The position numbers were made by a program, and so were the translations under genes. Positions 2,624-38,465 of a stretch of DNA of 64,000 bases are shown here, in pieces. Under the pieces are notes generated by a model, which saw nothing but the letters and a program-made list of their open reading frames with translations, was not told where the DNA came from and ran no database searches. Location of the stretch: the NCBI GenBank assembly GCA_050633305.1, contig JBOEGF010000012.1, forward strand, positions 59,487-123,486. Reading direction: 5' to 3'. Source of the DNA: Nannocystales bacterium (GTDB lineage Bacteria > Myxococcota_A > Polyangia > Nannocystales > Nannocystaceae). The stretch's first letter is position 1, and each line of letters begins with the position of its first letter.

Positions 2624-3547
2624 GTGCCCAGTCTCGCCCGCGTATCGTCTCTGTGCTCCTGCCTCGCGTTTCTGGTCGCGGGTGCGTGCGGCGACGACGG
2701 CGGTGGCGCCGCTGACGGGTCGACAGGAACCGGCACGCCGAGTTCGAGCGGATCGAACCAGGGCTCGACCGGGCCTTCCTCGGCGGGCTCGAGCACCACC
2801 GCGGTGACGACTGTCGCGGATTCCTCCACCACCGACGACTCCAACGGTACCGCCCCGGCGGGGGAGTGTGTTCTGTGGGACGCCGCCGAGTGCGGGGCAG
2901 GGCGCAAGTGCATGCCCTATTCGCTGGAGGATGACAGCGTTCCCGACGAGATCCGGTGCTGCGACGCGGTCGAGAACCCGGCGCTCGACGGAGAGCCGTG
3001 CGAAGGAATCGACTACAACGGTAGCTGTCTGGATAACTGCGAGCCGGGCAGCATGTGCGTGCTCGATGATGAGGACTCGCTCACGGGGTTGTGCCGTAGC
3101 TTCTGCGAACCAGGTGGCAACGACTGCGACCCCGACCAGACCTGCAAGGCTTTCTTCGAGCTGTTGCTGACAGTGCCCAACATTCCCACGTGCATGCAGC
3201 AGTGCGACCCGCTCACCCAGAACTGTCTGCCTTCTGGTTGGCATTGCATCCCGGATACGCCGACCGAGGCTGGGCAGAGTGGTTTTCTGTGCACGCCGCC
3301 GCCCCCGAGCCCGCCGCGCGGGATGTTCGAGCCCTGTGCGCTGGCCAACCAGTGCGAGCCTGGCTTGGTCTGCGTGACCGATGACCGCGTGCCCGGATGC
3401 ACCTTCGCGTCGTGCTGCACGGCATTCTGCGATCTCAACGACGGCGACAGCGTCTGTCAGAAGCTCGATCCGGACTTGGTGTGCACCGATTGGATGTCTC
3501 CCGATCCCGAGTGGCAGGACGTTGGCGCCTGCACGTTGCCGCAGTAG
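2624..3547 (+). CDS. Cys-rich myxobacterial lipoprotein
   Basis: Lipobox AGAC, Thr/Ser/Gly linker, many Cys (CGAGRKCMPY, CDPLTQNC, CCTAFCD). Confidence 0.8.
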   Translation: MPSLARVSSLCSCLAFLVAGACGDDGGGAADGSTGTGTPSSSGSNQGSTGPSSAGSSTTAVTTVADSSTTDDSNGTAPAGECVLWDAAECGAGRKCMPYSLEDDSVPDEIRCCDAVENPALDGEPCEGIDYNGSCLDNCEPGSMCVLDDEDSLTGLCRSFCEPGGNDCDPDQTCKAFFELLLTVPNIPTCMQQCDPLTQNCLPSGWHCIPDTPTEAGQSGFLCTPPPPSPPRGMFEPCALANQCEPGLVCVTDDRVPGCTFASCCTAFCDLNDGDSVCQKLDPDLVCTDWMSPDPEWQDVGACTLPQ

Positions 3548-10445: not shown

Positions 10446-12194
10446 TCATCGAATGAAGACCGAGCCCGCCGCCCACGGGAACCATCCCTCGTCCTGGGAG
10501 CCCTCCTCGCCCCAGCCGATGCGGAAGTCCGTCGTCGCAGCGCCGACGGTGTAGCTCGAGCTGTCAGCGGGCCAGGGGACGAGTTCATCGAGGGTGTCCA
10601 CGTCGGTGCCCTCGGCGGCAAAGCTCGTCACTGGACCGGCATCGTCGCCAGAACCGAACGAGATGTCGCCGTGTGTCCCGCCGTGGCAGAGATCCCAAAC
10701 GCTCTGTTCGAACGGACCGATGTCGGCGGTGTTGCCGGGGCCGGAGCCAAATGCCTGGGCCTGGTAGCCGGCGAGGTAGAACTCGGTGAACGTGGGGGCG
10801 AAGCTGAACGTGTAGTGGTACGTGTGCGCGCCGTTGCCGGCATCTTGGGTGAACGGACGGCACTGGGCGTCGATGCCTTCGATCGCGGCCGCTTCAACCG
10901 CGACGAGCGTGCCGCTGAGGGCGCTGGAGATGCATGGTGTGATCTCGGTCCATCCGCCGCCGTCGGTCGTCATGTCACAGTTCGTTTCGAACGCCGCGAT
11001 GCCGCCCGGGCCGTCGGGATCGAGCTGGTAGGGCCCATCTTCTGCGGCGGGGTCGTCCAGCAGAATGTTCAGACAAGAGGTCGGGATCGGTGTGCACACG
11101 TTGTCGATGCAGTTGTCCGCAACGCAGTCGGAGTCGAACTCGCACGTCTCCCCGTCGTCGCAAGCACCGCAGTCGATGCCCCCACAATCGACATCGGTCT
11201 CGTCCCCGTTGAGGACCCCGTCGTCGCAGGTGGGGGCGACGCATGTATCGCCGTCGCAAACCCCCGAGGTGCAGTCGGAGCCGATCCCGCAACCATCGCC
11301 GTCATCGCACGGATCGCAGCTGACGCCCCCACAGTCGACGTCGGTCTCGGTGCCGTTGTGAATGGTGTCGTCGCAAGCGGGTGGGGTGCAGGTGTCGTCC
11401 GTGCAGACGCCGGAGCTGCAGTCGCCGGCACCCGCACAGACCTCTCCGTCGTCACATGGGCCGCAGTCGGGGCCCCCGCAGTCGACGTCGGTCTCCGACC
11501 CGTTGTGCGCCCCGTCCTTGCAGGTCGGCGCCACGCAGACGCCTCCATCGCACAGGCCCGAGACGCAGTCCGAGCCGTCGCCACAGCCTTCACCGTCGTC
11601 GCACGGATCGCAGGTCGTGCCGCCGCAGTCGACGTCGGTCTCGTCCCCATTGTGGACGGCGTCATCGCACACAGGCTCGGTGCAGGAACCGTCGGTGCAG
11701 ACTCCCGAGGTGCAATCGGTGGGCTCGCTGCAGCTGCGGCCGTCATCGCAGGGGGTATCGCAGACACCACCGCAGTCGATGTCGGCTTCCCCATCGTCGA
11801 GGACGCCGTTGGTACAGGTGTCCCCGCTGGTGTCGGTGTCGCTGCTGGTGTCGGTGTCGCTGCTGGGGTCGGTGTCGCTGCTGGAGTCCGTGTCCGGGCT
11901 GGTGTCGGTGTTGCTGCTGGAGTCGGTGTCGGCGGTGGTGTCGGTGCTCGCGTCGGTGTCGGTGCCCGAGTTGGAGTCGGTCTCGCCGGCGGTCTCGGTC
12001 GTGATGGCATCGGTCTCGATCGGGATCTCGGGCCCACCGCTCGAGCTTCCGTCCGCGCTACCGCCTCCGATCGCGGCGCAGTTGCTCGAGTCGTCCTGCA
12101 GAATGCCGTCGTCCTCGCACGTTCCCGCGCATCCCGAGACAAGACTTGCCGCCACGACGGTCGTGCCGAGCCAAAGAACCTTCGCCAATGCCAT
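10446..12194 (-). CDS. Lipoprotein with five Cys-rich ETDVDCGG repeats and a fibrinogen-like (CDMTTDGGGWT) C-terminal domain
   Basis: Lipobox VSGC; DT/DS linker; five ~49-aa repeats; DGPYQLDPDG...CDMTTDGGGWT. Confidence 0.85.
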   Translation of the reverse strand: MALAKVLWLGTTVVAASLVSGCAGTCEDDGILQDDSSNCAAIGGGSADGSSSGGPEIPIETDAITTETAGETDSNSGTDTDASTDTTADTDSSSNTDTSPDTDSSSDTDPSSDTDTSSDTDTSGDTCTNGVLDDGEADIDCGGVCDTPCDDGRSCSEPTDCTSGVCTDGSCTEPVCDDAVHNGDETDVDCGGTTCDPCDDGEGCGDGSDCVSGLCDGGVCVAPTCKDGAHNGSETDVDCGGPDCGPCDDGEVCAGAGDCSSGVCTDDTCTPPACDDTIHNGTETDVDCGGVSCDPCDDGDGCGIGSDCTSGVCDGDTCVAPTCDDGVLNGDETDVDCGGIDCGACDDGETCEFDSDCVADNCIDNVCTPIPTSCLNILLDDPAAEDGPYQLDPDGPGGIAAFETNCDMTTDGGGWTEITPCISSALSGTLVAVEAAAIEGIDAQCRPFTQDAGNGAHTYHYTFSFAPTFTEFYLAGYQAQAFGSGPGNTADIGPFEQSVWDLCHGGTHGDISFGSGDDAGPVTSFAAEGTDVDTLDELVPWPADSSSYTVGAATTDFRIGWGEEGSQDEGWFPWAAGSVFIR

Positions 12195-12206
12195 GCGGCC
12201 TAGGGA

Positions 12207-12222
12207 TTCAAAATGTCTGCCA
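12207..12222 (-). promoter_or_regulatory. Possible sigma-54-like promoter (TGGCAGACATTTTGAA) for the repeat lipoprotein
   Basis: TGGCA at -24 and TTG with correct spacing, but -12 reads GA instead of GC; predicted +1 falls at about the ATG. Confidence 0.3.
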
Positions 12223-12407
12223 AAACAGGACACCCGCACCGCCGCGTACTTGGTTCTGGGCCCGGTCGGGCGCGGGGCAGTCTGCCCCGACAAAAAACGT
12301 CCAAAGTGCCGCGTTGCGGCCGCAGAACGATGATTCTAAGGGGTTGGAGGAGCGTTCCGGCCGACGTCTGAGGTGCGTTTGCAGACTCTGGCGAGCGGCA
12401 CCGCGCG

Positions 12408-30465: not shown

Positions 30466-32169
30466 TCAGCCTGCCCAGTGGTGAGGCCGGCCCCCAACGA
30501 TTGTCCCAAGAACCGGCGCGTCTCGAATCCGCGCCGGTTCTTGTTCGTCGAGGAGTCTCCCAAAACAGGTCAGGTCAGCTTGCATGCCCACCTTGATCTG
30601 CCCAAGTTCTTCTTCCCGGTGTACGGCGTAGGCAGCCTCCTGCGTGAAGCCCCGAACTGCGCGGTCCAGACTGACGCGTTGGTCGGCGAGCCACCCTCCC
30701 TCGGGGGCTCCGGTTGCGTCCCGCCGGGTGATGGCGGCGTACAGGCCGTGGGTCACATCGGGTAGCTCCACCGGGAAGTCACTTCCGAAGCAGAGGTGCG
30801 CGTCCGCGTCCAACAGACTGCGCCATGCATACGCGCCTGCGAGGCGTGAGACGCCAACTCGCTCGGCGACCCAGCCCATGTCCGACGTCGCGTGTGTCGG
30901 TTGCATCGATGCGATGACACCAAGCTCGGCGAAGCGGGGGATGTCGGAGGTGTCGAGGAGCTGGCAATGCTCAATGCGGGGTCGTGGGTCTCGCCGCGGC
31001 GCCTCCCCTAATGCGTGCTCGTACACGTCGAGGACGGTGCGGTTGCCTGCGTCGCCGATTGCGTGGGTGGCGACCTGCCATCCTCCTCGCATGGCGGCCA
31101 CGACGATTCGGCGGAGTGCAGCCTCGTCGTGCTGCATCAGCCCGCGATGGCCTGCTCGGTCGGCGTAGGGGTGGAGTAGGGCGGCACCGCGGCTCCCCAA
31201 CGCCCCGTCGGCGTAGACCTTCACGCCAGCGAGGGCGTAGCGGGATCCGCGCAACAGAGGGTCTGGCGCCTGGCCCTGGAGGTCTTGCATGAACCAGGAC
31301 TCCGCGGCGTAGGCGTGCACGCGGATCCGCAGAGCTTCGGAGTCGCTGGCCATACGTCGGTACGCAGCATCCGTGCCCGAGCCAATGCCCATGTCGTGCA
31401 CGCCCGTGAGTCCGCGTTCCAGGATGTGTTCTTGAGCCGCCTCGATCCGGGAGCGGAGGTCCGCGGGGGATGGCTGGGGGACGCTGACGAGCTCCATCGC
31501 GGTGTCGATCAGGACACCGGTTGCCGCTGCGGAGCTGTCGCGCAGAATCTCTCCACCGCTGGGGGTTGGGGTATTCGGACCGATCCCCGACTCTCGCAGC
31601 AAGGCGGCGTTGCCCCAAGCCGCGTGTCCATCCACGCGTCGAAGCCAGACCGGACGGTCCGGGAACGCTTGGGTGAGCGGATGGTGGGTCGGCATCGAGG
31701 CTTCCGGCCATAGGTTCTGGTCCCACCCGCGTCCGACGACCCACCCCTTGGCAGGGGCGCCCGCCTGCAGCCTGCGGACCACCTCTTGCGTTGATTCGGC
31801 GCCGCGAAGGTCCACTGTCGCCAGCGATTCTCCGAGCCCCACGAGGTGGGCGTGCGCATCGACGAGTCCGGGCGTCACTGTGCCCCCGCCCGCATCGAGG
31901 ACCACGGTACTCGGGCTTCGCAGGCCTTCCACCTCCGACTCATCTCCGACCGCGACGATGACCCCGTCGCGGATGGCCAGGGCGCGGGCGCGGGGCCGTG
32001 CTGGGTCGAGCGTCCAGACGTCGCCTCCGCGGACGATCATGGATGCGTTGGGCCGACCCGATGGGCTCGGTTGTGCCGGCTTGGGGGCCGAGGTGCCCTG
32101 AGCGGGTCGACATCCCGCGAGCGGGCTCGACAACAGCATCGTGAGCATCGAACGACGAGTGGGACGCAC
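30466..32169 (-). CDS. Exported amidohydrolase (amidohydrolase_3, YtcJ-like); Tat/lipoprotein signal
   Basis: TPGLVDAHAH, RVDGH, KVYADGALGSRGA, HAIGD, RIEH, SMQPTH, GSDFPVE; N-terminal TRRSML...LAGC. Confidence 0.92.
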   Translation of the reverse strand: MRPTRRSMLTMLLSSPLAGCRPAQGTSAPKPAQPSPSGRPNASMIVRGGDVWTLDPARPRARALAIRDGVIVAVGDESEVEGLRSPSTVVLDAGGGTVTPGLVDAHAHLVGLGESLATVDLRGAESTQEVVRRLQAGAPAKGWVVGRGWDQNLWPEASMPTHHPLTQAFPDRPVWLRRVDGHAAWGNAALLRESGIGPNTPTPSGGEILRDSSAAATGVLIDTAMELVSVPQPSPADLRSRIEAAQEHILERGLTGVHDMGIGSGTDAAYRRMASDSEALRIRVHAYAAESWFMQDLQGQAPDPLLRGSRYALAGVKVYADGALGSRGAALLHPYADRAGHRGLMQHDEAALRRIVVAAMRGGWQVATHAIGDAGNRTVLDVYEHALGEAPRRDPRPRIEHCQLLDTSDIPRFAELGVIASMQPTHATSDMGWVAERVGVSRLAGAYAWRSLLDADAHLCFGSDFPVELPDVTHGLYAAITRRDATGAPEGGWLADQRVSLDRAVRGFTQEAAYAVHREEELGQIKVGMQADLTCFGRLLDEQEPARIRDAPVLGTIVGGRPHHWAG

Positions 32170-32301
32170 GGCGAGATGCTAGAGCAGAATGCTGACGACA
32201 ACCATGTGGCGATAGCTTCGCACGCACAGGGCCCGTGCCGAGAGACTTGACCCGCGGACGAGCGCCCGTCACCCTTAGTCAGGTTCGCTGCTTGGGTTTG
32301 T

Positions 32302-32853
32302 ATGGATTTGAAACGACTGCCACCGTCGCTGTTGGTCGCGCTGGGCCTTGCGGGCTGTGGTCCTGCAGTGGACAGCGGGACTTCGGGGGGCGACTCGGGC
32401 GGGTCTGCAACCAGCACGGGAGGCTCGAGCGGCACCGTTGGGCCTTGTTTGACCCCTTGGGAGACGACCAGTGGCGCGACGACGTCGAACTCGGTGGGCC
32501 CGTGCTTGGGGATGGTCACGACGGGACCGTGTCTCGATGTGGGCTCGACGGTGGGCCCTTGCCTTGCGCCGCCGCTTGGCACCAGCAGCGGAACTGACAC
32601 CGATACCGATACGGACACCTCCGGTGGCGGAACCGACTCCGGCACCACGGGTGGGGCCGACACGGGCGCGGGGTCATGCCTCGTCCCGCCCGACGCGTTC
32701 CCGGAGCCGGTCGGGGACTGGGCCGGAGCGCCCGACACACCGGCGCCGCAGACCCGATCGCTGATCCTGCGTCGGCTCCGTCAGGCGGGTGTCCTCCCCG
32801 ATGATGTCGCGGCTCGCCTGCCGCTTCACCCCGACGACAACCCCTCGGACTGA
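32302..32853 (+). CDS. Putative multi-core RiPP-like precursor / lipoprotein 1 (4x GPCL plus GSCL)
   Basis: Leader MDLKRLPPSLLVALGLAGC (lipobox); GPCL at aa 47, 66, 75 and 85, GSCL at 124; C-terminal RRLRQAGVLPDDVAARL; no folded domain recognisable. Confidence 0.7.
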   Translation: MDLKRLPPSLLVALGLAGCGPAVDSGTSGGDSGGSATSTGGSSGTVGPCLTPWETTSGATTSNSVGPCLGMVTTGPCLDVGSTVGPCLAPPLGTSSGTDTDTDTDTSGGGTDSGTTGGADTGAGSCLVPPDAFPEPVGDWAGAPDTPAPQTRSLILRRLRQAGVLPDDVAARLPLHPDDNPSD

Positions 32854-32874
32854 CGGGCCCACGCGGACGTACAA

Positions 32875-32905
32875 CCGAAGCACTGCCGAAGCACTGCCGA
32901 AGCAC
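32875..32905 (+). repeat. 11-bp direct tandem repeat CCGAAGCACTG, about 2.8 copies
   Basis: CCGAAGCACTG CCGAAGCACTG CCGAAGCAC, ending 1 nt before the ATG at 32907. Confidence 0.9.
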
Positions 32906-32906
32906 A

Positions 32907-33377
32907 ATGGATCTCAAGCGCCTTCCTCCCTCACTCCTCGTCGCCCTGGGCCTCGCCGCTGCGGGTGGGGACAACATGGGCTGTACGACCAGCGCCTGTC
33001 TTGACGTGGCCGGCCCGGAGACGACGACGGGTCCGTGCTTGGATGTCGTCGCGCCGACCACCAGCGGAGAGACCACCGGCGCTGGATCCGACGGGTCTAC
33101 TGTCGGCCCGTGCTTGGACGTTGCGCCAGGAACCACCACGTCATCCACGAACCCGACCTCTGGCACCGCGACCGGGTCGAGTTCCGGCACGGACACGGAC
33201 ACGGACACGGACACGGACGGTGGGACGGATTCTGACGGCGGGACCGACTCCGGCACCAGCACAGGAGGCCTCCCTAATGGTGGCGAAGCTGCGGAGCGAG
33301 GGTCGGTTCTTGGGCGCTTGCTCGATGCAGACATCTTGCCACCCGATGTCGCGGCGCGTCTCCGCTCGAAGGACTGA
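32907..33377 (+). CDS. Putative multi-core RiPP-like precursor / lipoprotein 2 (SACLDV, 2x GPCLDV)
   Basis: Same 17-aa leader as the previous gene; CLDV three times; C-terminal RLLDADILPPDVAARL. Confidence 0.7.
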   Translation: MDLKRLPPSLLVALGLAAAGGDNMGCTTSACLDVAGPETTTGPCLDVVAPTTSGETTGAGSDGSTVGPCLDVAPGTTTSSTNPTSGTATGSSSGTDTDTDTDTDGGTDSDGGTDSGTSTGGLPNGGEAAERGSVLGRLLDADILPPDVAARLRSKD

Positions 33378-33379
33378 GC

Positions 33380-34555
33380 ATGTCGGTCCTCGAAATCTCC
33401 GAACTCGAGTCTGATCCACAGTCTCAGATCCCAAGACTCGACTTCGAGCTCACGCCCGGCTGCGACCACAAGTGCGCCCATTGTTACAACGTGTGGACCG
33501 CGGACGAGGGCGACGCGCAAGCGGGCTACGACACGGGCGGCCAACTGCGAACGCCCGAGTTCAAGGCGATGATGACCAACATCGTCGGGCAGACCCAAGC
33601 CAAGCACATCACGATCACGGGTGGGGAACCGCTGCTGCGCAAGGATGCCGTCGACATCATCGAACACGCATGCCGCAGCGTGGATGTCGTCACGCTGATC
33701 ACCAACGGGAGTCACGTCGGCCCTGACACCGCGGCTCGTTTCGGTCGCGCGGGTCTGCGGCAGGTTCAGCTGACGCTGCTCGCAGGCGACAGGGTCGAGC
33801 ATGATCGGCTCAAAGGCGCGGAATGCTTCGACGACACGATTCGGGCTGCGGTGAACCTGACCGAGGCCGGCGTGCCCGTGCAGGTCTGCTTTGTCGCGAT
33901 GCACGAGAACTGGCATCAGTTCGAACGTGTGATGGAGCTGTGTTTCGCCTTGGGCATCCGGGGAGTCTCGTACAATCGAATGTCTCCCACCGGCGGAGCC
34001 ATTCACCACATCGCCCGCCTCATGCCCACGGTCGAGCAGATCGAGTCCAACCTCGACACGGCAGAGCGACTGGGTCGAGCGTGGGGTATCGCTGTATCCA
34101 CCGCGATGCCGATCCCGCCGTGTCTGATCCGCATCGAGAACTACAGCTGGGTGCGTTTCGGGTTCTGTAGCACCGGGTCGTCTTCGCCGAATATCGTCAT
34201 CGATGGGAAGGGCAACGTGCGCAGCTGCAACCTCGCCGGCGGGGTGATGGGGAACGTGCTCGAGCAGCCATGGTCGGAGATCTATGCGGTCCCCTACCAG
34301 CGCGAGTTCAAGCGCAACGTTCCTCAGATGTGCCGCGGCTGCGCCTACGAATCGTCGTGTCAGGGCGGCTGCAAAGAGAGCGGGTTTGCGACGTTTGGCG
34401 ATCATGCGCATCCCGAGCCCCTGTTGTGGCTGGCCCAGAACCCCGACTGGCGCGAGAAGGTCGGCGAGGAGGTCGATCAGTCGATCATTCCGCTGCGTAG
34501 GCTGACGCGCCCGCCGAGTCGCAAGACCGAGGGAGCCCCGGTTGGCGACGCGTGA
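33380..34555 (+). CDS. Radical SAM protein with SPASM domain (peptide-maturase type)
   Basis: CDHKCAHC (CX3CX2C), TGGEPL, TNG; SPASM C..GNVRSC..GNV..CRGC-X5-CQGGC. Confidence 0.92.
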   Translation: MSVLEISELESDPQSQIPRLDFELTPGCDHKCAHCYNVWTADEGDAQAGYDTGGQLRTPEFKAMMTNIVGQTQAKHITITGGEPLLRKDAVDIIEHACRSVDVVTLITNGSHVGPDTAARFGRAGLRQVQLTLLAGDRVEHDRLKGAECFDDTIRAAVNLTEAGVPVQVCFVAMHENWHQFERVMELCFALGIRGVSYNRMSPTGGAIHHIARLMPTVEQIESNLDTAERLGRAWGIAVSTAMPIPPCLIRIENYSWVRFGFCSTGSSSPNIVIDGKGNVRSCNLAGGVMGNVLEQPWSEIYAVPYQREFKRNVPQMCRGCAYESSCQGGCKESGFATFGDHAHPEPLLWLAQNPDWREKVGEEVDQSIIPLRRLTRPPSRKTEGAPVGDA

Positions 34556-36776
34556 CCCGTGCGTACTCCTGATCTCGCCGGGGATCATCAAGTGGACCGA
34601 CATGGACTTCGGTCTGCCTCACTTGGTGAGCATGGGCGGGTACGTGCAGCATCACACCGGGGTTCGCGTCGAGTTGCTCGACCTGAACTACGAAGGCGGC
34701 GACCACAAGCAGCTCCTCGAGACCATCGAGTCGCTGGGGCCGCATCTGGTCATCGGGCTCTCCACATATTCCAGCTTCGACTACATGCGGGTGATGGCGC
34801 TCGCCCGCTTCCTCCGGCGCCGTTTTCCGAACACGCCGCTGGTCACGGGGGGTTATCACGCCAGTGCGTTGCCCACCGATGTCGTCTTCGAGGGCTCGCC
34901 CTTTGATGCCGTCATCGTAGGGGAGGGGGAGAAACCCCTGCTGTCGATGGTCCAGGTGCTGCTCGGGGGCGGACGTCTGGACAAGCAGATCTGGGGACCC
35001 GATCAGATTCAGGACCTCGACGCGCTGCCGCCGTACCAGTGGCAACTGCTCGACCGCTACTGGCCCCGCGCGACGGACATCGGTCGCAAGTTCCAGATCT
35101 ACCTCGCACGTGGTTGCCCGTACCACTGCACGTTCTGCATGGAGCGGGCGAAGAGTGGCTACAAGTGGCGGGCGTACTCCTCCGAGCGCGCCGTGTCTGA
35201 GCTTGTCCGCCTCTCGCAATGGACCGACCTGAAGAACTGGGTCATCAACATTGCGGACCCCTTGTTCGGGTTCAAGCGCAGCTGGAGGCGTGAGGTGCTC
35301 CAGGGCATCATCGAGCACGACTTGCTGCCTCGGCAGTACTGGACGCTGACGCGCTCGGACGACCTCGATGACGAGGACGTGAGCCTCTTGGCACGGGCAC
35401 GGTTCTCGATCGGCATCGGCCTCGAGAGCGGGAGCCCGAAGATGCTCACGCTGATGCAGAAGGGCAACAAGCCCGACGCCTACCTCTCCGCGATGCAGCG
35501 CCTGGCTCGCCTCAGCCGCAAGCACAAGCTGACCTGGGCCTCGAACGTGATCGTCGGGCACCCCGGCGAGTCGATCGAATCGATGCGGGAGACCCAGCGT
35601 TACCTCACCGAGCTGTTCACCTCCGCGAAGGAAACCTGCGGGTGGCTGTCGATCGACGCGTTTCGGCTGTACCCCGGAGCGCAGGTCCACGAGGCCATGG
35701 AGACCTACGGCCAGCTTCACGGCACTCGATTCCACCATCCTCAGTGGTGGAAGAGTTGGTACGACGGCGCGTTTGCAGCCGAGCACATCGACCCCAGCGC
35801 AGAGGTGTCCTTCGAGGATCGGGTCGAGTTTATGCATGAGGCCTACGCCCCGTTGACCGCGGAGATCGCGGAGCGCTTCACCGGTCAGGGCCGCAGCGTT
35901 GACCGTGTGTTTCGCCGCAGCCTCAACGACCAAGCCCGACAGATGAGCAAGGCGAGCAAAGAAACAACCCTGCGTCGGGCGGCCCGCGTCCGCGCGCTGG
36001 CCGAACGTCGAGAGGACGAGCAAGGGACCGTTACCGCGGTGAACTTTCCCATCGGTCTGCATCTCAAGGATCCGTGGGTCCGGGAGCGCGAGTCGGCGGT
36101 ACGGCGGCTCCTCGACGAAGGCGTGCTGAGGACCGCGGACCTGGTCGAAGCGCTTCTGCAGGTCTCTCCACAGGCGCACATGTCTCGGGAGGCGGCGGCG
36201 ATGCTGCTCGGGGGAGAGCACGCGTGCAGTGAGGTCGAGGGGGAACTCGCCATCTCGCTCAGCCTCCGAACCACGGCGATGGGTCTCGAGGCGCTCGAAC
36301 CGGCGCTCGGCGACCGTGTGGTCGATGTGACCGCGCGCAGCGGGTACTTGGCTGCCCTGTTGTCTCTGCTCGTCGGGGAGCAGGGGGAGGTGCTCGCGAT
36401 TCATCCGGTCGGAGGGTCCTTGGACGAGGCGCGGGCCTTTGCGAAGGGCTTGGAGCCGTGCAGGAACGTTCTGGTCACGGAGGCGGAGTCCGCCGGGGTG
36501 ATGCTGGAAGGTACCTGGGACGGGGCGTGGATCGGCGCCGCGTTGCCGCGGGTTCCCCAGGGCGTCGCCACCCACCTGACCGAGCCCGGCGGACGGCTGA
36601 TCACCTTTGTCGGACCGCGGTTTCGACCCCAGGATCTGGTTGCACTGACGCGCCACGGAGAAGGGCTCGAAGAGCGCCGGGTGGCCAAGGTGGCGGTCCC
36701 GGTGCTCGCGGGACCGGGCGGGTGGATCCAACACCAACCTTCCGCCACGGTGGCCCGATCCTCGGTACGTCCGTGA
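34542..36776 (+). CDS. Cobalamin-binding radical SAM enzyme fused to a C-terminal PIMT (Pcm)-like methyltransferase domain
   Basis: B12-binding region (GGYHAS, VGEGE), ARGCPYHCTFC, GLESGS; C-terminal LEPALGDRVVDVTARSGYLAALL and LTEPGGRLI; TTG start with GAGGGAG SD. Confidence 0.85.
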   Translation: MATRDPCVLLISPGIIKWTDMDFGLPHLVSMGGYVQHHTGVRVELLDLNYEGGDHKQLLETIESLGPHLVIGLSTYSSFDYMRVMALARFLRRRFPNTPLVTGGYHASALPTDVVFEGSPFDAVIVGEGEKPLLSMVQVLLGGGRLDKQIWGPDQIQDLDALPPYQWQLLDRYWPRATDIGRKFQIYLARGCPYHCTFCMERAKSGYKWRAYSSERAVSELVRLSQWTDLKNWVINIADPLFGFKRSWRREVLQGIIEHDLLPRQYWTLTRSDDLDDEDVSLLARARFSIGIGLESGSPKMLTLMQKGNKPDAYLSAMQRLARLSRKHKLTWASNVIVGHPGESIESMRETQRYLTELFTSAKETCGWLSIDAFRLYPGAQVHEAMETYGQLHGTRFHHPQWWKSWYDGAFAAEHIDPSAEVSFEDRVEFMHEAYAPLTAEIAERFTGQGRSVDRVFRRSLNDQARQMSKASKETTLRRAARVRALAERREDEQGTVTAVNFPIGLHLKDPWVRERESAVRRLLDEGVLRTADLVEALLQVSPQAHMSREAAAMLLGGEHACSEVEGELAISLSLRTTAMGLEALEPALGDRVVDVTARSGYLAALLSLLVGEQGEVLAIHPVGGSLDEARAFAKGLEPCRNVLVTEAESAGVMLEGTWDGAWIGAALPRVPQGVATHLTEPGGRLITFVGPRFRPQDLVALTRHGEGLEERRVAKVAVPVLAGPGGWIQHQPSATVARSSVRP

Positions 36777-37504
36777 ACATCGACTTCGTTCGCTGGGATC
36801 AGGCGGCTCGGCTCTACGCCGTACTCGCGCGGCTGGACCTCGGCGCGGATGCGGCCTCGCTCTACGATGCCCGGCTCGCGACCGGGCCCTGGGTGGAATC
36901 GCTGTTGGACGCGTATCAAGCGGCGCCGAAACGCCTGCTGCTGCACGGAGCCCCGCTCGTGCTGTCCGAGGAGGGTCGCCCGCTCGAAGTTGACATACCA
37001 CCTGCTGGGCTGTCCGACGCGTCGGGTCGCCGTCTGTGGGCGGCGACCCTCGAGGGCTTGGAGGCGATCGCGAGCGAACCGCTGCAGTACGCGGAGGTCC
37101 CGGCCGAGATCATCGAACCGCTCGGGGTGCTTCGCGCTGCGCTCTGGGAGCGGGTGGGCCCGCCGCCACCGCTGACCGTCGTGGACTGTCCTGCGTTGCG
37201 CCGTGCCGGTCGAGCTGTGCAGTCGACCCATGGCAGGCTTGTGGGGGTCTCGCTCGCCGAACCGGCGGAGCATCTGCTCTGCCAGGTTCTGCACGAAGAA
37301 ACCCATGCCCTCACAGACCCCGTCGTTCGGCAGGCATGGAGCGCGGCAGGTGCGGGTCGCGACACGTCGGTCGGCAGCCCAGGGTATGCTCGGCATCAGG
37401 CGCTCGAGGCCGCCGCGGTTGAGGTCGGCGACGCGCTCATCGCTGCCCGCGCGCCGCAGTGGAGCGACGCGTATCGACGGTGGCGGGCGCGGTTCGGCAA
37501 GTGA
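36773..37504 (+). CDS. HExxH-motif protein (metallopeptidase or HExxH oxygenase candidate)
   Basis: GTGA overlap with the upstream stop; QVLHEETHALTD plus downstream HQALE. Confidence 0.65.
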   Translation: MNIDFVRWDQAARLYAVLARLDLGADAASLYDARLATGPWVESLLDAYQAAPKRLLLHGAPLVLSEEGRPLEVDIPPAGLSDASGRRLWAATLEGLEAIASEPLQYAEVPAEIIEPLGVLRAALWERVGPPPPLTVVDCPALRRAGRAVQSTHGRLVGVSLAEPAEHLLCQVLHEETHALTDPVVRQAWSAAGAGRDTSVGSPGYARHQALEAAAVEVGDALIAARAPQWSDAYRRWRARFGK

Positions 37505-37514
37505 GGAATGGCGC

Positions 37515-37847
37515 CTACGCGGGCAGCCCGATGTTTCGCAGCACGTTTCGCAGCTGCGGCTCCATCATCGAGCCGCTCTGGGTCCCGGCGAGCTCGCCGT
37601 CGGCGAAGCACAGCAAAGTCGGCACGCTGCGTACGCGATAGTGCGTGGCAAGGTCTGCGGACGTGTCCGCATTGACCAGCAGGAGTTCGAGCTTTCCCTC
37701 CGAGCTGGCGACGACGCGCTCGACGATGGGTTTGTAGGTTTTGCATGGCGCGCACCACGGTGTGGAGAACAGGACCAGTAGCCCCTTGGGCGGCGCTTCC
37801 AGCGTTCGCGCGAACGCGGCTGGGTCGAGGGAGAGAAGATTGCTCAT
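37515..37847 (-). CDS. Thioredoxin family protein
   Basis: FSTPWCAPCK, YRVRSVPTL. Confidence 0.92.
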   Translation of the reverse strand: MSNLLSLDPAAFARTLEAPPKGLLVLFSTPWCAPCKTYKPIVERVVASSEGKLELLLVNADTSADLATHYRVRSVPTLLCFADGELAGTQSGSMMEPQLRNVLRNIGLPA

Positions 37848-37853
37848 CAAGGG

Positions 37854-37913
37854 CTCAGGTGCCGAGCAGAGCTGGCCTTACAGGCGTAAGATCTTGATTC
37901 CTGAACACCTGAG
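37854..37913. promoter_or_regulatory. Back-to-back ECF-type promoters GTAAG-N15-CACCTGAG, one on each strand
   Basis: Plus strand: GTAAG(37886)-15nt-CACCTGAG(37906-13)-6nt-ATG. Minus strand: GTAAG(37881)-15nt-CACCTGAG(37861-54)-6nt-ATG(37847). Confidence 0.7.
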
Positions 37914-37919
37914 AACGAG

Positions 37920-38465
37920 ATGGACGCAACCAACGACGGGCTCGACATGCTCGGGGCTCTGATCCTCGCGGAACGCGCCCGATGGGTTTCGGTCGCGCGC
38001 GCCGAGGGGCTCGGTCCGCAGGACGCGATCGAGGCCGTGCAGGAGAGCCTCTGCAAGGTTCTGCGCGGGTTGGTGCTCGGCGACACCGAGGTTCCGCGAG
38101 ATCGTCTGGCCGCCTACGTCGCCGTTGTGGTTCGCAACGCGGCCCGCAACGGTCGACGCAGGCATCATCGGGCCCGTCCCCACGTCCCCCTCGACGAGCT
38201 CGACGAGATGGTTCTCGCCGATGAGCAGCCGGACTCCGAGGCGCTCGTCGCTCGCGCCGAGGAGCACGTTCGATTGCATGCTTGCGTTGCACGACTCTGC
38301 GATACGCAGCGCGCAGTCGTCACGTTGCGCCTGTTGGAGGAACGGGCGGGGGAGGACGTCGCGGGGACTCTGGGCATCACGCGGAACCACGTGGACGTGT
38401 TGTTGCACCGCGCCAAGCGTCAGTTGCGAAGCTGCTTGATCGAAGAACGTGTGACGCACGCCTGA
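37920..38465 (+). CDS. ECF sigma-70 factor
   Basis: Region 2 DAIEAVQE...VVRNAARN; region 4 QRAVVTLR..EDVAGTLGIT..VLLHRAKRQL. Confidence 0.9.
   Translation: MDATNDGLDMLGALILAERARWVSVARAEGLGPQDAIEAVQESLCKVLRGLVLGDTEVPRDRLAAYVAVVVRNAARNGRRRHHRARPHVPLDELDEMVLADEQPDSEALVARAEEHVRLHACVARLCDTQRAVVTLRLLEERAGEDVAGTLGITRNHVDVLLHRAKRQLRSCLIEERVTHA

Follow-up and report, generated by a model that had tools for sequence, protein, structure and literature searches.

The DNA considered here is a 64,000-nucleotide (nt) stretch from the genome of a Nannocystales bacterium (contig JBOEGF010000012.1, positions 59,487 to 123,486 of the forward strand), referred to below as ‘the window’. Near its middle, two short genes for proteins with repeated Cys motifs, precursors 1 and 2, are followed on the same strand by three others: a gene for a radical S-adenosylmethionine (SAM) enzyme with a SPASM domain, a gene for a B12-binding radical SAM protein fused to a PCMT-like domain, and orfX, which encodes a zincin-like protein with an HExxH motif (Table 1). 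Together these make up a four-part cassette, namely precursor(s), radical SAM/SPASM enzyme, B12-radical SAM/PCMT-like fusion (‘B12/PCMT’) and orfX. The repeated element, termed the ‘unit’, has the form xxCL, and most often GPCL. The C-terminal helical hairpin of the precursors is termed the ‘follower’.

Table 1. Features of the cassette, in coordinates of the window (aa, amino acids)
Feature	Position	Strand	Description
Precursor 1	32302..32853	+	183 aa; N-terminal MDLKRLPPSLLVALGLAGC, lipobox Cys19, five xxCL units, C-terminal hairpin from about residue 152
Unit Cys of precursor 1	residues 49, 68, 77, 87, 126
Unit-bearing core, precursor 1	32437..32685	+	units at nt 32437-32454, 32494-32511, 32521-32538, 32551-32568, 32668-32685
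C-terminal follower, precursor 1	32755..32850	+	RSLILRRLRQAGVLPDDVAARL...
Precursor 2	32907..33377	+	156 aa; N terminus as precursor 1, three xxCL units (Cys 31, 44, 69), TD-repeat spacer, C-terminal hairpin
Unit-bearing core, precursor 2	32988..33119	+	units at nt 32988-33005, 33027-33044, 33102-33119
C-terminal follower hairpin, precursor 2	33288..33374	+	AAERGSVLGRLLDADILPPDVAARLRSKD; predicted docking on the radical SAM enzyme
Radical SAM/SPASM enzyme	33380..34555	+	391 aa; CX3CX2C at C28/C32/C35; SPASM Cys 248, 263, 283, 318, 321, 327, 331
B12-binding radical SAM + PCMT-like fusion	34542..36776	+	744 aa; PF02310, PF04055, PF01135
orfX	36773..37504	+	243 aa; GTG start overlaps stop of the B12/PCMT gene; HExxH, zincin-like

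Protein 1 contains six Cys residues: C19, in the sequence GLAGC, and one each in TVGPCLTP, SVGPCLGM, TTGPCLDV, TVGPCLAP and GAGSCLVP. Protein 2 contains four: C26, in the sequence NMGC, and one each in TSACLDV, TTGPCLDV and TVGPCLDV. The initial annotation of this DNA had described the two as paralogous precursors with a repeated core motif, in which every Cys but the first, taken to be a lipidation site, belongs to an xxCL unit. The repeat is as described, with five units in protein 1 and three in protein 2, and so is the confinement of all other Cys residues to units in both. A lipidation site is predicted for protein 1, where Cys19 fits the lipobox rule used here (similar to PROSITE PS51257), and not for protein 2, where the first Cys does not fit. 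The two proteins have in common the N terminus MDLKRLPPSLLVALGL, a Thr–Asp repeat (TDTDTD) and the C-terminal motif LPxDVAARL. Compositionally corrected BLAST gives no significant score between them, because most of their sequence is of low complexity, and no Pfam or NCBIfam model matches either at E ≤ 0.01.

Both open reading frames (ORFs) are real, paralogous genes. They are taken as coding because the G+C content of their third codon positions (GC3), 0.77 in precursor 1 and 0.74 in precursor 2, is the highest of the three positions in each, and because orthologues are conserved at the protein level with insertions and deletions (indels) confined to the spacers. The clustering of GPCL in them is more than chance. 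A six-frame scan of the whole 11.0-Mb genome (66% G+C), which took in 123,281 stop-to-stop ORFs (50 aa or longer, 18.1 million residues in all) and 223 occurrences of GPCL, found only precursors 1 and 2 with two or more (four and two, respectively); by Poisson arithmetic, four in one ORF of 200 aa are expected about 1e-12 times per ORF. The ATG of the radical SAM gene lies 3 nt past the stop of precursor 2, behind GAAGGA. In a promoter and terminator scan of positions 32000–37900, sigma-70-like sites were absent and a single terminator-like site fell within the B12 gene, a yield no higher than in shuffled sequences. An antisense ORF of 695 aa (32516–34603, minus strand) that covers the precursors and the radical SAM gene was considered and rejected as a high-GC shadow ORF, its GC3 of 0.66 being below that of the sense genes.

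Two nucleotide repeats occur here as well. A perfect 11-nt tandem repeat, CCGAAGCACTG (2.8 copies, 32875–32905), lies in the 53-nt gap between the precursors and ends just 5′ of the ATG of precursor 2. The hexanucleotide CACGGA (5.2 copies at 33185–33248, and present also at 32584–32610 in precursor 1) encodes the TDTDTD spacer; this spacer looks prone to slippage, because the length of the repeat varies among orthologues.

Orthologues of the radical SAM enzyme in related genomes have an ORF of the same type upstream, down to 42–44% identity, and 16 such upstream proteins (alignment A1) were used to build a family profile. A word-indexed search of 5.8 billion proteins yielded 104 clusters, all named hypothetical and none with a Pfam domain. 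When 1.84 billion representatives were searched without an index (hmmsearch), 381 proteins passed E ≤ 0.001, of which 148 passed E ≤ 1e-10. Clustered at 50% identity, the family has no fewer than 381 clusters, most of them from Myxococcota, and is unannotated. Its members are built alike: an N-terminal hydrophobic or lipobox segment, then 1–13 units with variable spacers, and finally the conserved C-terminal helical hairpin.

The consensus of the unit is [DE]xx[VTI]GPCL[SED][PV][PA]P. Among the 528 units of the word-indexed search, the commonest residues (in percent, numbered from the Cys) are D27/E20 at −6, V48/T19/I8 at −3, G68 at −2 and P75/A10 at −1; downstream they are S38/E15/D13/G10 at +2, P, V or A at +3 to +5, with P35, A18, D8, V8, E6, T3 and L3 at +4, and P27/D23 at +6. 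Cys residues that lack a following Leu are concentrated at the N terminus (136 of 164 within the first 60 residues). In the 114 proteins that were new in the index-free search, 452 of the 495 Cys residues beyond residue 45 have Leu next; GPCL is present in 108 of these proteins and the pattern of the C-terminal motif in 107. Counting only Cys beyond residue 45, they have 0–13 units each, the low counts arising because this cut-off misses early units. Successive units are 4–64 residues apart (median 16). Comparison of four orthologue pairs found 63 of 80 positions identical in units, 209 of 398 in spacers and 79 of 120 in the last 30 residues, with all indels falling in spacers. In a related cassette (94%), one unit reads GPIL in place of GPCL, a Cys-to-Ile change, and its neighbours are intact.

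The same genome contains a third, orphan paralogue elsewhere (G000:C42:17132-17572; L062/L077), with five xPCL units and the C-terminal sequence LPPDVLAKL. No cassette enzyme is encoded within about 7 kb upstream of it or 9 kb downstream, where the neighbours are adenylate kinase-like, TetR and short-chain dehydrogenase/reductase (SDR) genes; presumably it is served in trans by the single radical SAM enzyme of the window.

Linkage between precursor and cassette is near-obligate in both directions across distant Myxococcota. Starting from the precursor, a profile search of 401 Myxococcota genomes matched 22, in 23 distinct places. At 19 of these the next gene downstream is a radical SAM orthologue (59–66% identical), and wherever the flank is long enough the B12/PCMT gene comes after it; the other four comprise two at contig ends, one without units (probably a false match) and the orphan paralogue just described. 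Starting from the radical SAM enzyme, orthologues of 50% identity or more were found at 63 loci, 56 of which include 600 nt or more of DNA upstream; a precursor lies upstream in 50 of the 56, 49 being found by pattern and one (L094) by eye. Nine relatives of 21–37% identity from other phyla show no precursor except for one pattern match, in the locus of a relative of 33% identity (L145), where the regular expression matches once, in an ORF of 338 aa. The possibility raised at the outset, that such repeat proteins might be widespread away from radical SAM genes, is thus not what the genomes show.

The order precursor(s), radical SAM, B12/PCMT, orfX is kept in 14 widened loci of distant Myxococcota; Paraliomyxa miuraensis, with three precursors, keeps it as well. 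In one locus (G032) the precursor is located after orfX. Comparison of 17 loci revealed no further conserved neighbouring gene, and in particular no exporter. Metagenome-assembled genomes with the labels Nannocystaceae, Polyangia, Bradymonadia or Myxococcales make up almost all of the carriers; some few have labels of other phyla, these being database labels as given. Genes for an amidohydrolase, a thioredoxin and an extracytoplasmic function (ECF) sigma factor lie nearby in the window, and were rejected as parts of the system, being syntenic only in the closest relatives or absent there. The thioredoxin gene (37515–37850, minus strand) and the ECF sigma gene (37920–38465, plus strand) come directly after the cassette; they do not belong to its conserved part, because in the 94%-related contig orfX is directly followed by an fpg-like gene.

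The radical SAM/SPASM enzyme matches PF04055 (E = 9e-24), and its C28, C32 and C35 are invariant in 21 orthologues. PF13186 matches with a score of 23.5 against a cut-off of 21.5, and the seven SPASM Cys residues, spaced CX14GX4C and CX2CX5CX3C, are invariant. There is no N-terminal recognition element (RRE) of the kind used by maturases of peptides that are made by ribosomes and modified after translation (RiPPs): the radical SAM domain starts as early as residue 23 (of 391), and neither Pfam nor NCBIfam gives a match to any PqqD-type family. Every radical SAM match in NCBIfam is far below its cut-off, the best being NirJ2 (106.7 bits against 500). The models that come closest are those of peptide maturases (PqqE, StsB and MftC, for example), again far below their cut-offs; scores and cut-offs include 62.2/400 for ACGX (TIGR04340), 75.9/400 for GeoRSP (TIGR04303), 73.3/400 for ScmF, 42.9/350 for SbtM (TIGR04082), 82.6/625 for StsB and 44.8/850 for AlbA. 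No curated family in the Pfam and NCBIfam scans covers the cassette.

The fusion protein combines a B12-binding domain (PF02310, score 43.3 against a cut-off of 32.1), a radical SAM domain (PF04055, 56.7 against 29.5) and, at residues 517–716, a PCMT-like domain (PF01135, 54.8 bits against 20.3). Its CPYHCTFC motif is conserved in the orthologues whose alignment covers the site. The PCMT-like domain aligns over its full length with solved protein isoaspartyl methyltransferases (PIMTs), with DVTARSGY standing opposite EIGTGCGY of PDB 2yxe. This SAM loop is degenerate in all 12 orthologues, of 17 aligned, that cover the whole region, and GxGxG[YW] is found in none of 120 relatives of the B12/PCMT protein. 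To judge from these alignments, the domain has probably lost the usual mode of SAM binding and acts instead as a module for binding or scaffolding.

The first helix of the follower (33288–33374) resembles the first helix of the PCMT-like domain (36072–36131). Profile–profile comparison (hhalign) aligned ERGSVLGRLLDADIL with RERESAVRRLLDEGVL over 20 columns (P = 8.1e-5, probability 61%), a resemblance not picked up by BLASTP of the follower against the B12/PCMT protein. This weak match, which we offer as a lead, might stem from a common origin or from the two helices competing for the same docking surface.

The orfX protein has no Pfam match at E ≤ 10 and no family match. Its predicted model is confident (pLDDT, the predicted local distance difference test, 93.9; pTM, the predicted template modelling score, 0.91), and H173, E174, H177, D181, H207 and E211 (model numbering) are invariant in 11 orthologues. 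The top rows of a VIA-align comparison are nearly all zincins: YbeY (Z 7.1; root-mean-square deviation 3.1 over 116 residues), M1 aminopeptidases (Z 5.3–6.3), Wss1 (Z 5.0), BepA and thermolysin, although values of Z below 8 can reflect a common arrangement. The best score in an ESM Atlas search, 0.89, was below the useful range. Among 120 relatives listed for the B12/PCMT protein, 26 have lengths of 930 aa or more, and every one of the 26 has the orfX domain fused C-terminally and ends in HExxHxx[TS]D; one of them (P0257) matches the orfX profile over residues 734–985 (hhalign probability 100%, E = 5.8e-47). Because of these fusions, orfX is likely to work together with the B12 enzyme.

Structure prediction of protein 2 with alignment A1 gave a mean pLDDT of 56.4 and a pTM of 0.20. 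Residues 21–125 have no predicted secondary structure (pLDDT 45–52), and the only confident part is the C-terminal hairpin, made of helices 126–140 and 146–155 (pLDDT 81–88). The disorder expected by the initial annotation is accordingly what the prediction gives for protein 2, with neither a folded nor a disulfide-bonded domain. When the radical SAM enzyme (alignment A3, 21 orthologues) was co-folded with residues 112–156 of protein 2, the interface score ipSAE was 0.71, 0.70 and 0.73 in three runs and 0.00, 0.00 and 0.01 in three controls; the pLDDT of the partner was 71–73, and contacts agreed between runs to at least 91%. Of 157 solved complexes, 116 attain the mark used for such co-folds, as do 2 of 215 mismatched pairs; with custom alignments these counts serve only as a rough guide. 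The follower residues at the modelled interface (V134, L135, L138, I143, L144, P145, D147, V148, R151 and L152) are the conserved positions of the C-terminal motif. Those of the enzyme (F150, D151, I154, R155, V158, E186, L187, A190 and G192) fall in the stretches CFDDT(I/V)RAA and (M/L)ELCxALG, which vary little or not at all within the family and are different in PqqE. The model supports binding of the follower to a surface specific to this family of radical SAM enzymes.

At the other end of the precursors, the N-terminal segment of protein 1 looks like a lipoprotein signal peptide, and the lipobox rule is obeyed by 80 of 104 family proteins. No part of the protein is better conserved than its first 20 residues (75 of 80 positions identical in the four orthologue pairs). 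A short N terminus of this kind, far better conserved than the usual signal peptide, may double as a second recognition element.

Given the anatomy of the precursors and of their family, the linkage of the genes, and the predicted disorder and docking, we think it probable that the two genes encode paralogous multi-site substrate proteins of a dedicated four-part maturation cassette, in which each unit is modified independently. The chemistry, the order of the steps and the final location of the product we infer to be as follows. The follower would dock on the outer helices of the RRE-less radical SAM/SPASM enzyme, and the floppy core, thus tethered, would let each Cys unit enter the active site in turn. 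The product would most likely be an intra-unit thioether formed from the Cys sulfur, because the Cys is invariant, the SPASM domain is complete and precedents are known; because a Gly–Pro turn separates the Cys from a β-branched residue at −3, a ring from i−3 to i across that turn is suggested, for example. Some other oxidation of the Cys would be the alternative, with formylglycine the main chemical rival. The B12-radical SAM enzyme would then make a further change, C-methylation being the most likely; its PCMT-like domain, which has lost the SAM-binding glycines, would probably serve as a binding module rather than as a methyltransferase. The HExxH zincin-like protein would trim the product, most likely by removing the follower, and the modified protein would then be exported and remain anchored in the membrane. 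The proposal made from the window alone, that each xxCL is an independent site of modification, draws support from the free number and spacing of the units, the restriction of indels to spacers, the higher conservation of units than of spacers and the loss of a single unit as GPIL.

Several observations weigh against this reading, or against parts of it. One genome, G013 (97% complete), has the precursor, the radical SAM gene and orfX, and no B12/PCMT gene at E ≤ 1e-10; the B12 step would therefore be dispensable. The same genome retains the follower, and so fits the radical SAM enzyme (or orfX) as the follower’s partner. No acceptor residue is strictly conserved, −3 being V, T or I in 75% of units and +2 being D or E in 28%, and the thioether consequently rests on precedent. 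The co-fold is a statement of model confidence rather than a measurement. For orfX, a Foldseek search of the PDB returned nothing at E ≤ 0.001, so that its putative assignment to the zincins leans on the invariant HExxH residues together with modest fold scores. Topology poses a further difficulty. Radical SAM enzymes are cytoplasmic and protein 1 has a signal peptide, and modification would therefore have to precede export. Moreover, 29 of 104 relatives have, after the lipobox segment, another hydrophobic segment plus a conserved G–C, and their repeat region is therefore predicted to lie in the cytoplasm, opposite to that of the short form found in the window. Two such segments are likewise seen in many relatives at the loci L007, L009 and L037–L056, where the second segment ends in T-Q-x-G-C.

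Other explanations account for parts of the same evidence. PQQ (pyrroloquinoline quinone) and mycofactocin are carved from a peptide, and cyanobactin cores are likewise present in several copies; by analogy, the precursors could be multi-copy carriers: once modified, each unit would be excised by the HExxH protein, and a small cross-linked peptide or a molecule resembling a cofactor would be set free. Such a scheme would make sense of the zincin-like hydrolase, which is obligate in the cassette and sometimes fused to the B12 enzyme, of the presence of PqqE and the mycofactocin maturase among the nearest curated radical SAM models, of a unit number so free (1–13) that copy number might merely set the yield, and of the acidic residue at −6 and the P or D at +6 that recur around units in many relatives. 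We nevertheless regard it as unlikely: the spacers have no conserved cleavage motif, no conserved exporter lies nearby, and the membrane-targeting segment at the N terminus, the best-conserved part of the whole protein, is hardly something that a throw-away carrier needs. It is harder to believe that the thiols are never modified, and that the precursors are ordinary secreted Cys lipoproteins (e.g. metal-binding or disulfide-bonded) whose neighbouring enzymes act elsewhere. The lipobox signal peptide of protein 1, the other Cys-rich lipoproteins of the window and the thioredoxin gene just after the cassette in this genome all speak for that view, which we consider very improbable. The thioredoxin is outside the conserved cassette, the linkage of precursor and enzyme genes holds both ways across distant Myxococcota, the core is predicted to be disordered, with Cys residues 4–64 positions apart and no pairing pattern, and the follower is predicted to dock on the radical SAM enzyme with clean controls.

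A third possibility concerns the chemistry. The radical SAM/SPASM enzyme might oxidize the unit Cys, before export, to formylglycine or another product that is not cross-linked, giving a surface protein studded with aldehydes. Anaerobic sulfatase-maturing enzymes (anSMEs) act in this way on sulfatases before export, and the comparison is apt in that the Cys is itself the invariant residue and has no strictly conserved acceptor, the substrate has a signal peptide as sulfatases do, and the enzyme has a full seven-Cys SPASM domain. The sulfatase motif, however, is C/S-x-P/A-x-R, whereas the unit, C-L-[SED]-[PV]-[PA], lacks its Arg, which is not among the seven commonest residues at +4; nor is any anSME model among the best 25 of the 59 NCBIfam matches below cut-off. 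We judge this outcome to be distinctly improbable. Multi-site modification of a protein that is itself the end product, by way of a thioether or a similar derivative, remains the reading that we prefer.

Of the systems described in the literature, the one that comes nearest is the CrpA/CrpC pair of Methanococcus voltae, in which the SPASM radical SAM enzyme CrpC installs ranthionine thioethers on CrpA, a protein-sized substrate encoded next to it (PMC13692751). The Cys residues of CrpA lie in a 17-residue motif present in ten copies, and there are paralogous substrates with a common N terminus; CrpC (TIGR04463) has a predicted RRE, recognition relies on N-terminal domains, the motif is C-x-x-Q/D, and the repeat region has been modelled as a β-helix (PMC13692751). 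The two systems are alike in their SPASM enzyme, neighbouring protein substrate, repeated short Cys motif and paralogous substrates. They differ in that the cassette described here has no RRE, is predicted to recognize a C-terminal hairpin, uses GPCL without a fixed acceptor in a core predicted to be disordered, has two additional conserved partners (the B12-radical SAM/PCMT-like and zincin-like proteins), and occurs in a myxobacterium rather than an archaeon.

Looser parallels are found among the ranthi- and sactipeptides, which also pair a radical SAM/SPASM maturase with several equivalent units per precursor. SCIFF/CteB, freyrasin/PapB (with six CX3D units) and NxxcB (with the unit N-x-x-C) are examples of thioether formation in repeated Cys motifs, and NxxcB joins the Cys to the residue three positions upstream. 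Unlike the proteins here, those precursors are short peptides of the cytoplasm whose N-terminal leader is bound by an RRE and whose acceptors are Asp, Glu, Asn or Thr at fixed spacing. The ACGX-repeat, GeoRSP, SynChlorMet and SbtA/SbtM systems of NCBIfam/TIGRFAMs are likewise pairs of a Cys-repeat peptide and a radical SAM/SPASM enzyme, and peptides of the SbtA type are lipoprotein-like, but the radical SAM enzyme here is far below the cut-offs of all of them. QhpD makes Cys-to-Asp/Glu thioethers in QhpC, a subunit of quinohemoprotein amine dehydrogenase, before export. Like the anSMEs, it is a cytoplasmic SPASM enzyme that modifies Cys in a protein that later crosses the membrane; the substrates of both are folded subunits with one or a few sites, whereas the precursors here are predicted to be disordered and have many equivalent units and a follower of their own. 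PCMT-type domains and class B radical SAM enzymes reportedly occur together in peptide-modifying clusters, as in ApyD/ApyS and with the PIMT/PCMT homologues of other RiPP pathways; in the present family the two are in one polypeptide, the GxGxG SAM loop is absent from all of the 120 relatives, and the score of the ApyD model is 57.7 against a cut-off of 750. The initial comparison with the multi-core precursors of cyanobactins and graspetides is sound for the multi-unit layout but does not extend to the enzymes: none of theirs (PatA/PatG-type proteases, heterocyclase or ATP-grasp ligase) appeared in Pfam and NCBIfam scans of the cassette proteins, which contain only radical SAM, SPASM, B12-binding and PCMT domains.

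A literature search found no description of this family or cassette in the text that was searchable, some 1.7 million PMC articles lying outside it. The system is unnamed, and it is common in myxobacteria. If the preferred reading is true, it adds a sizeable unannotated family, of at least 381 clusters, to the few cases in which the ‘peptide’ chemistry of radical SAM enzymes is applied to whole proteins. It would also offer a form of substrate recognition independent of the RRE, with a C-terminal follower docking on the radical SAM core, would point to a pseudo-methyltransferase domain recruited into a RiPP-like pathway, and would raise the question of how lipoprotein export and an oxygen-sensitive enzyme of the cytoplasm are coordinated. 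A cultured carrier, Paraliomyxa miuraensis SMH-27-4, makes experiments possible. Going further, one can imagine a new class of membrane proteins tailored by radical SAM enzymes, in which up to 13 GPCL units carry an undescribed cross-link or Cys derivative (e.g. a thioether from Cys to Val, Thr or Ile over the Gly–Pro turn) and are then methylated in a B12-dependent manner, with a PCMT-like C-terminal hairpin plugging onto the radical SAM barrel in place of an RRE and the SAM-blind PCMT domain acting as a second clamp. This fuller picture is possible, and we put it forward tentatively, with more doubt than belief.

The initial annotation had also set the xxCL layout apart from that of two other Cys-rich predicted lipoproteins in the window, and rightly, for neither has it. 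These are encoded at 2624–3547 (plus strand) and 10446–12293 (minus strand), and their Cys residues are arranged in dense, disulfide-like patterns, the latter protein consisting in part of about six repeats of the type CDD..NG.ETDVDCGG..C..CDDG.

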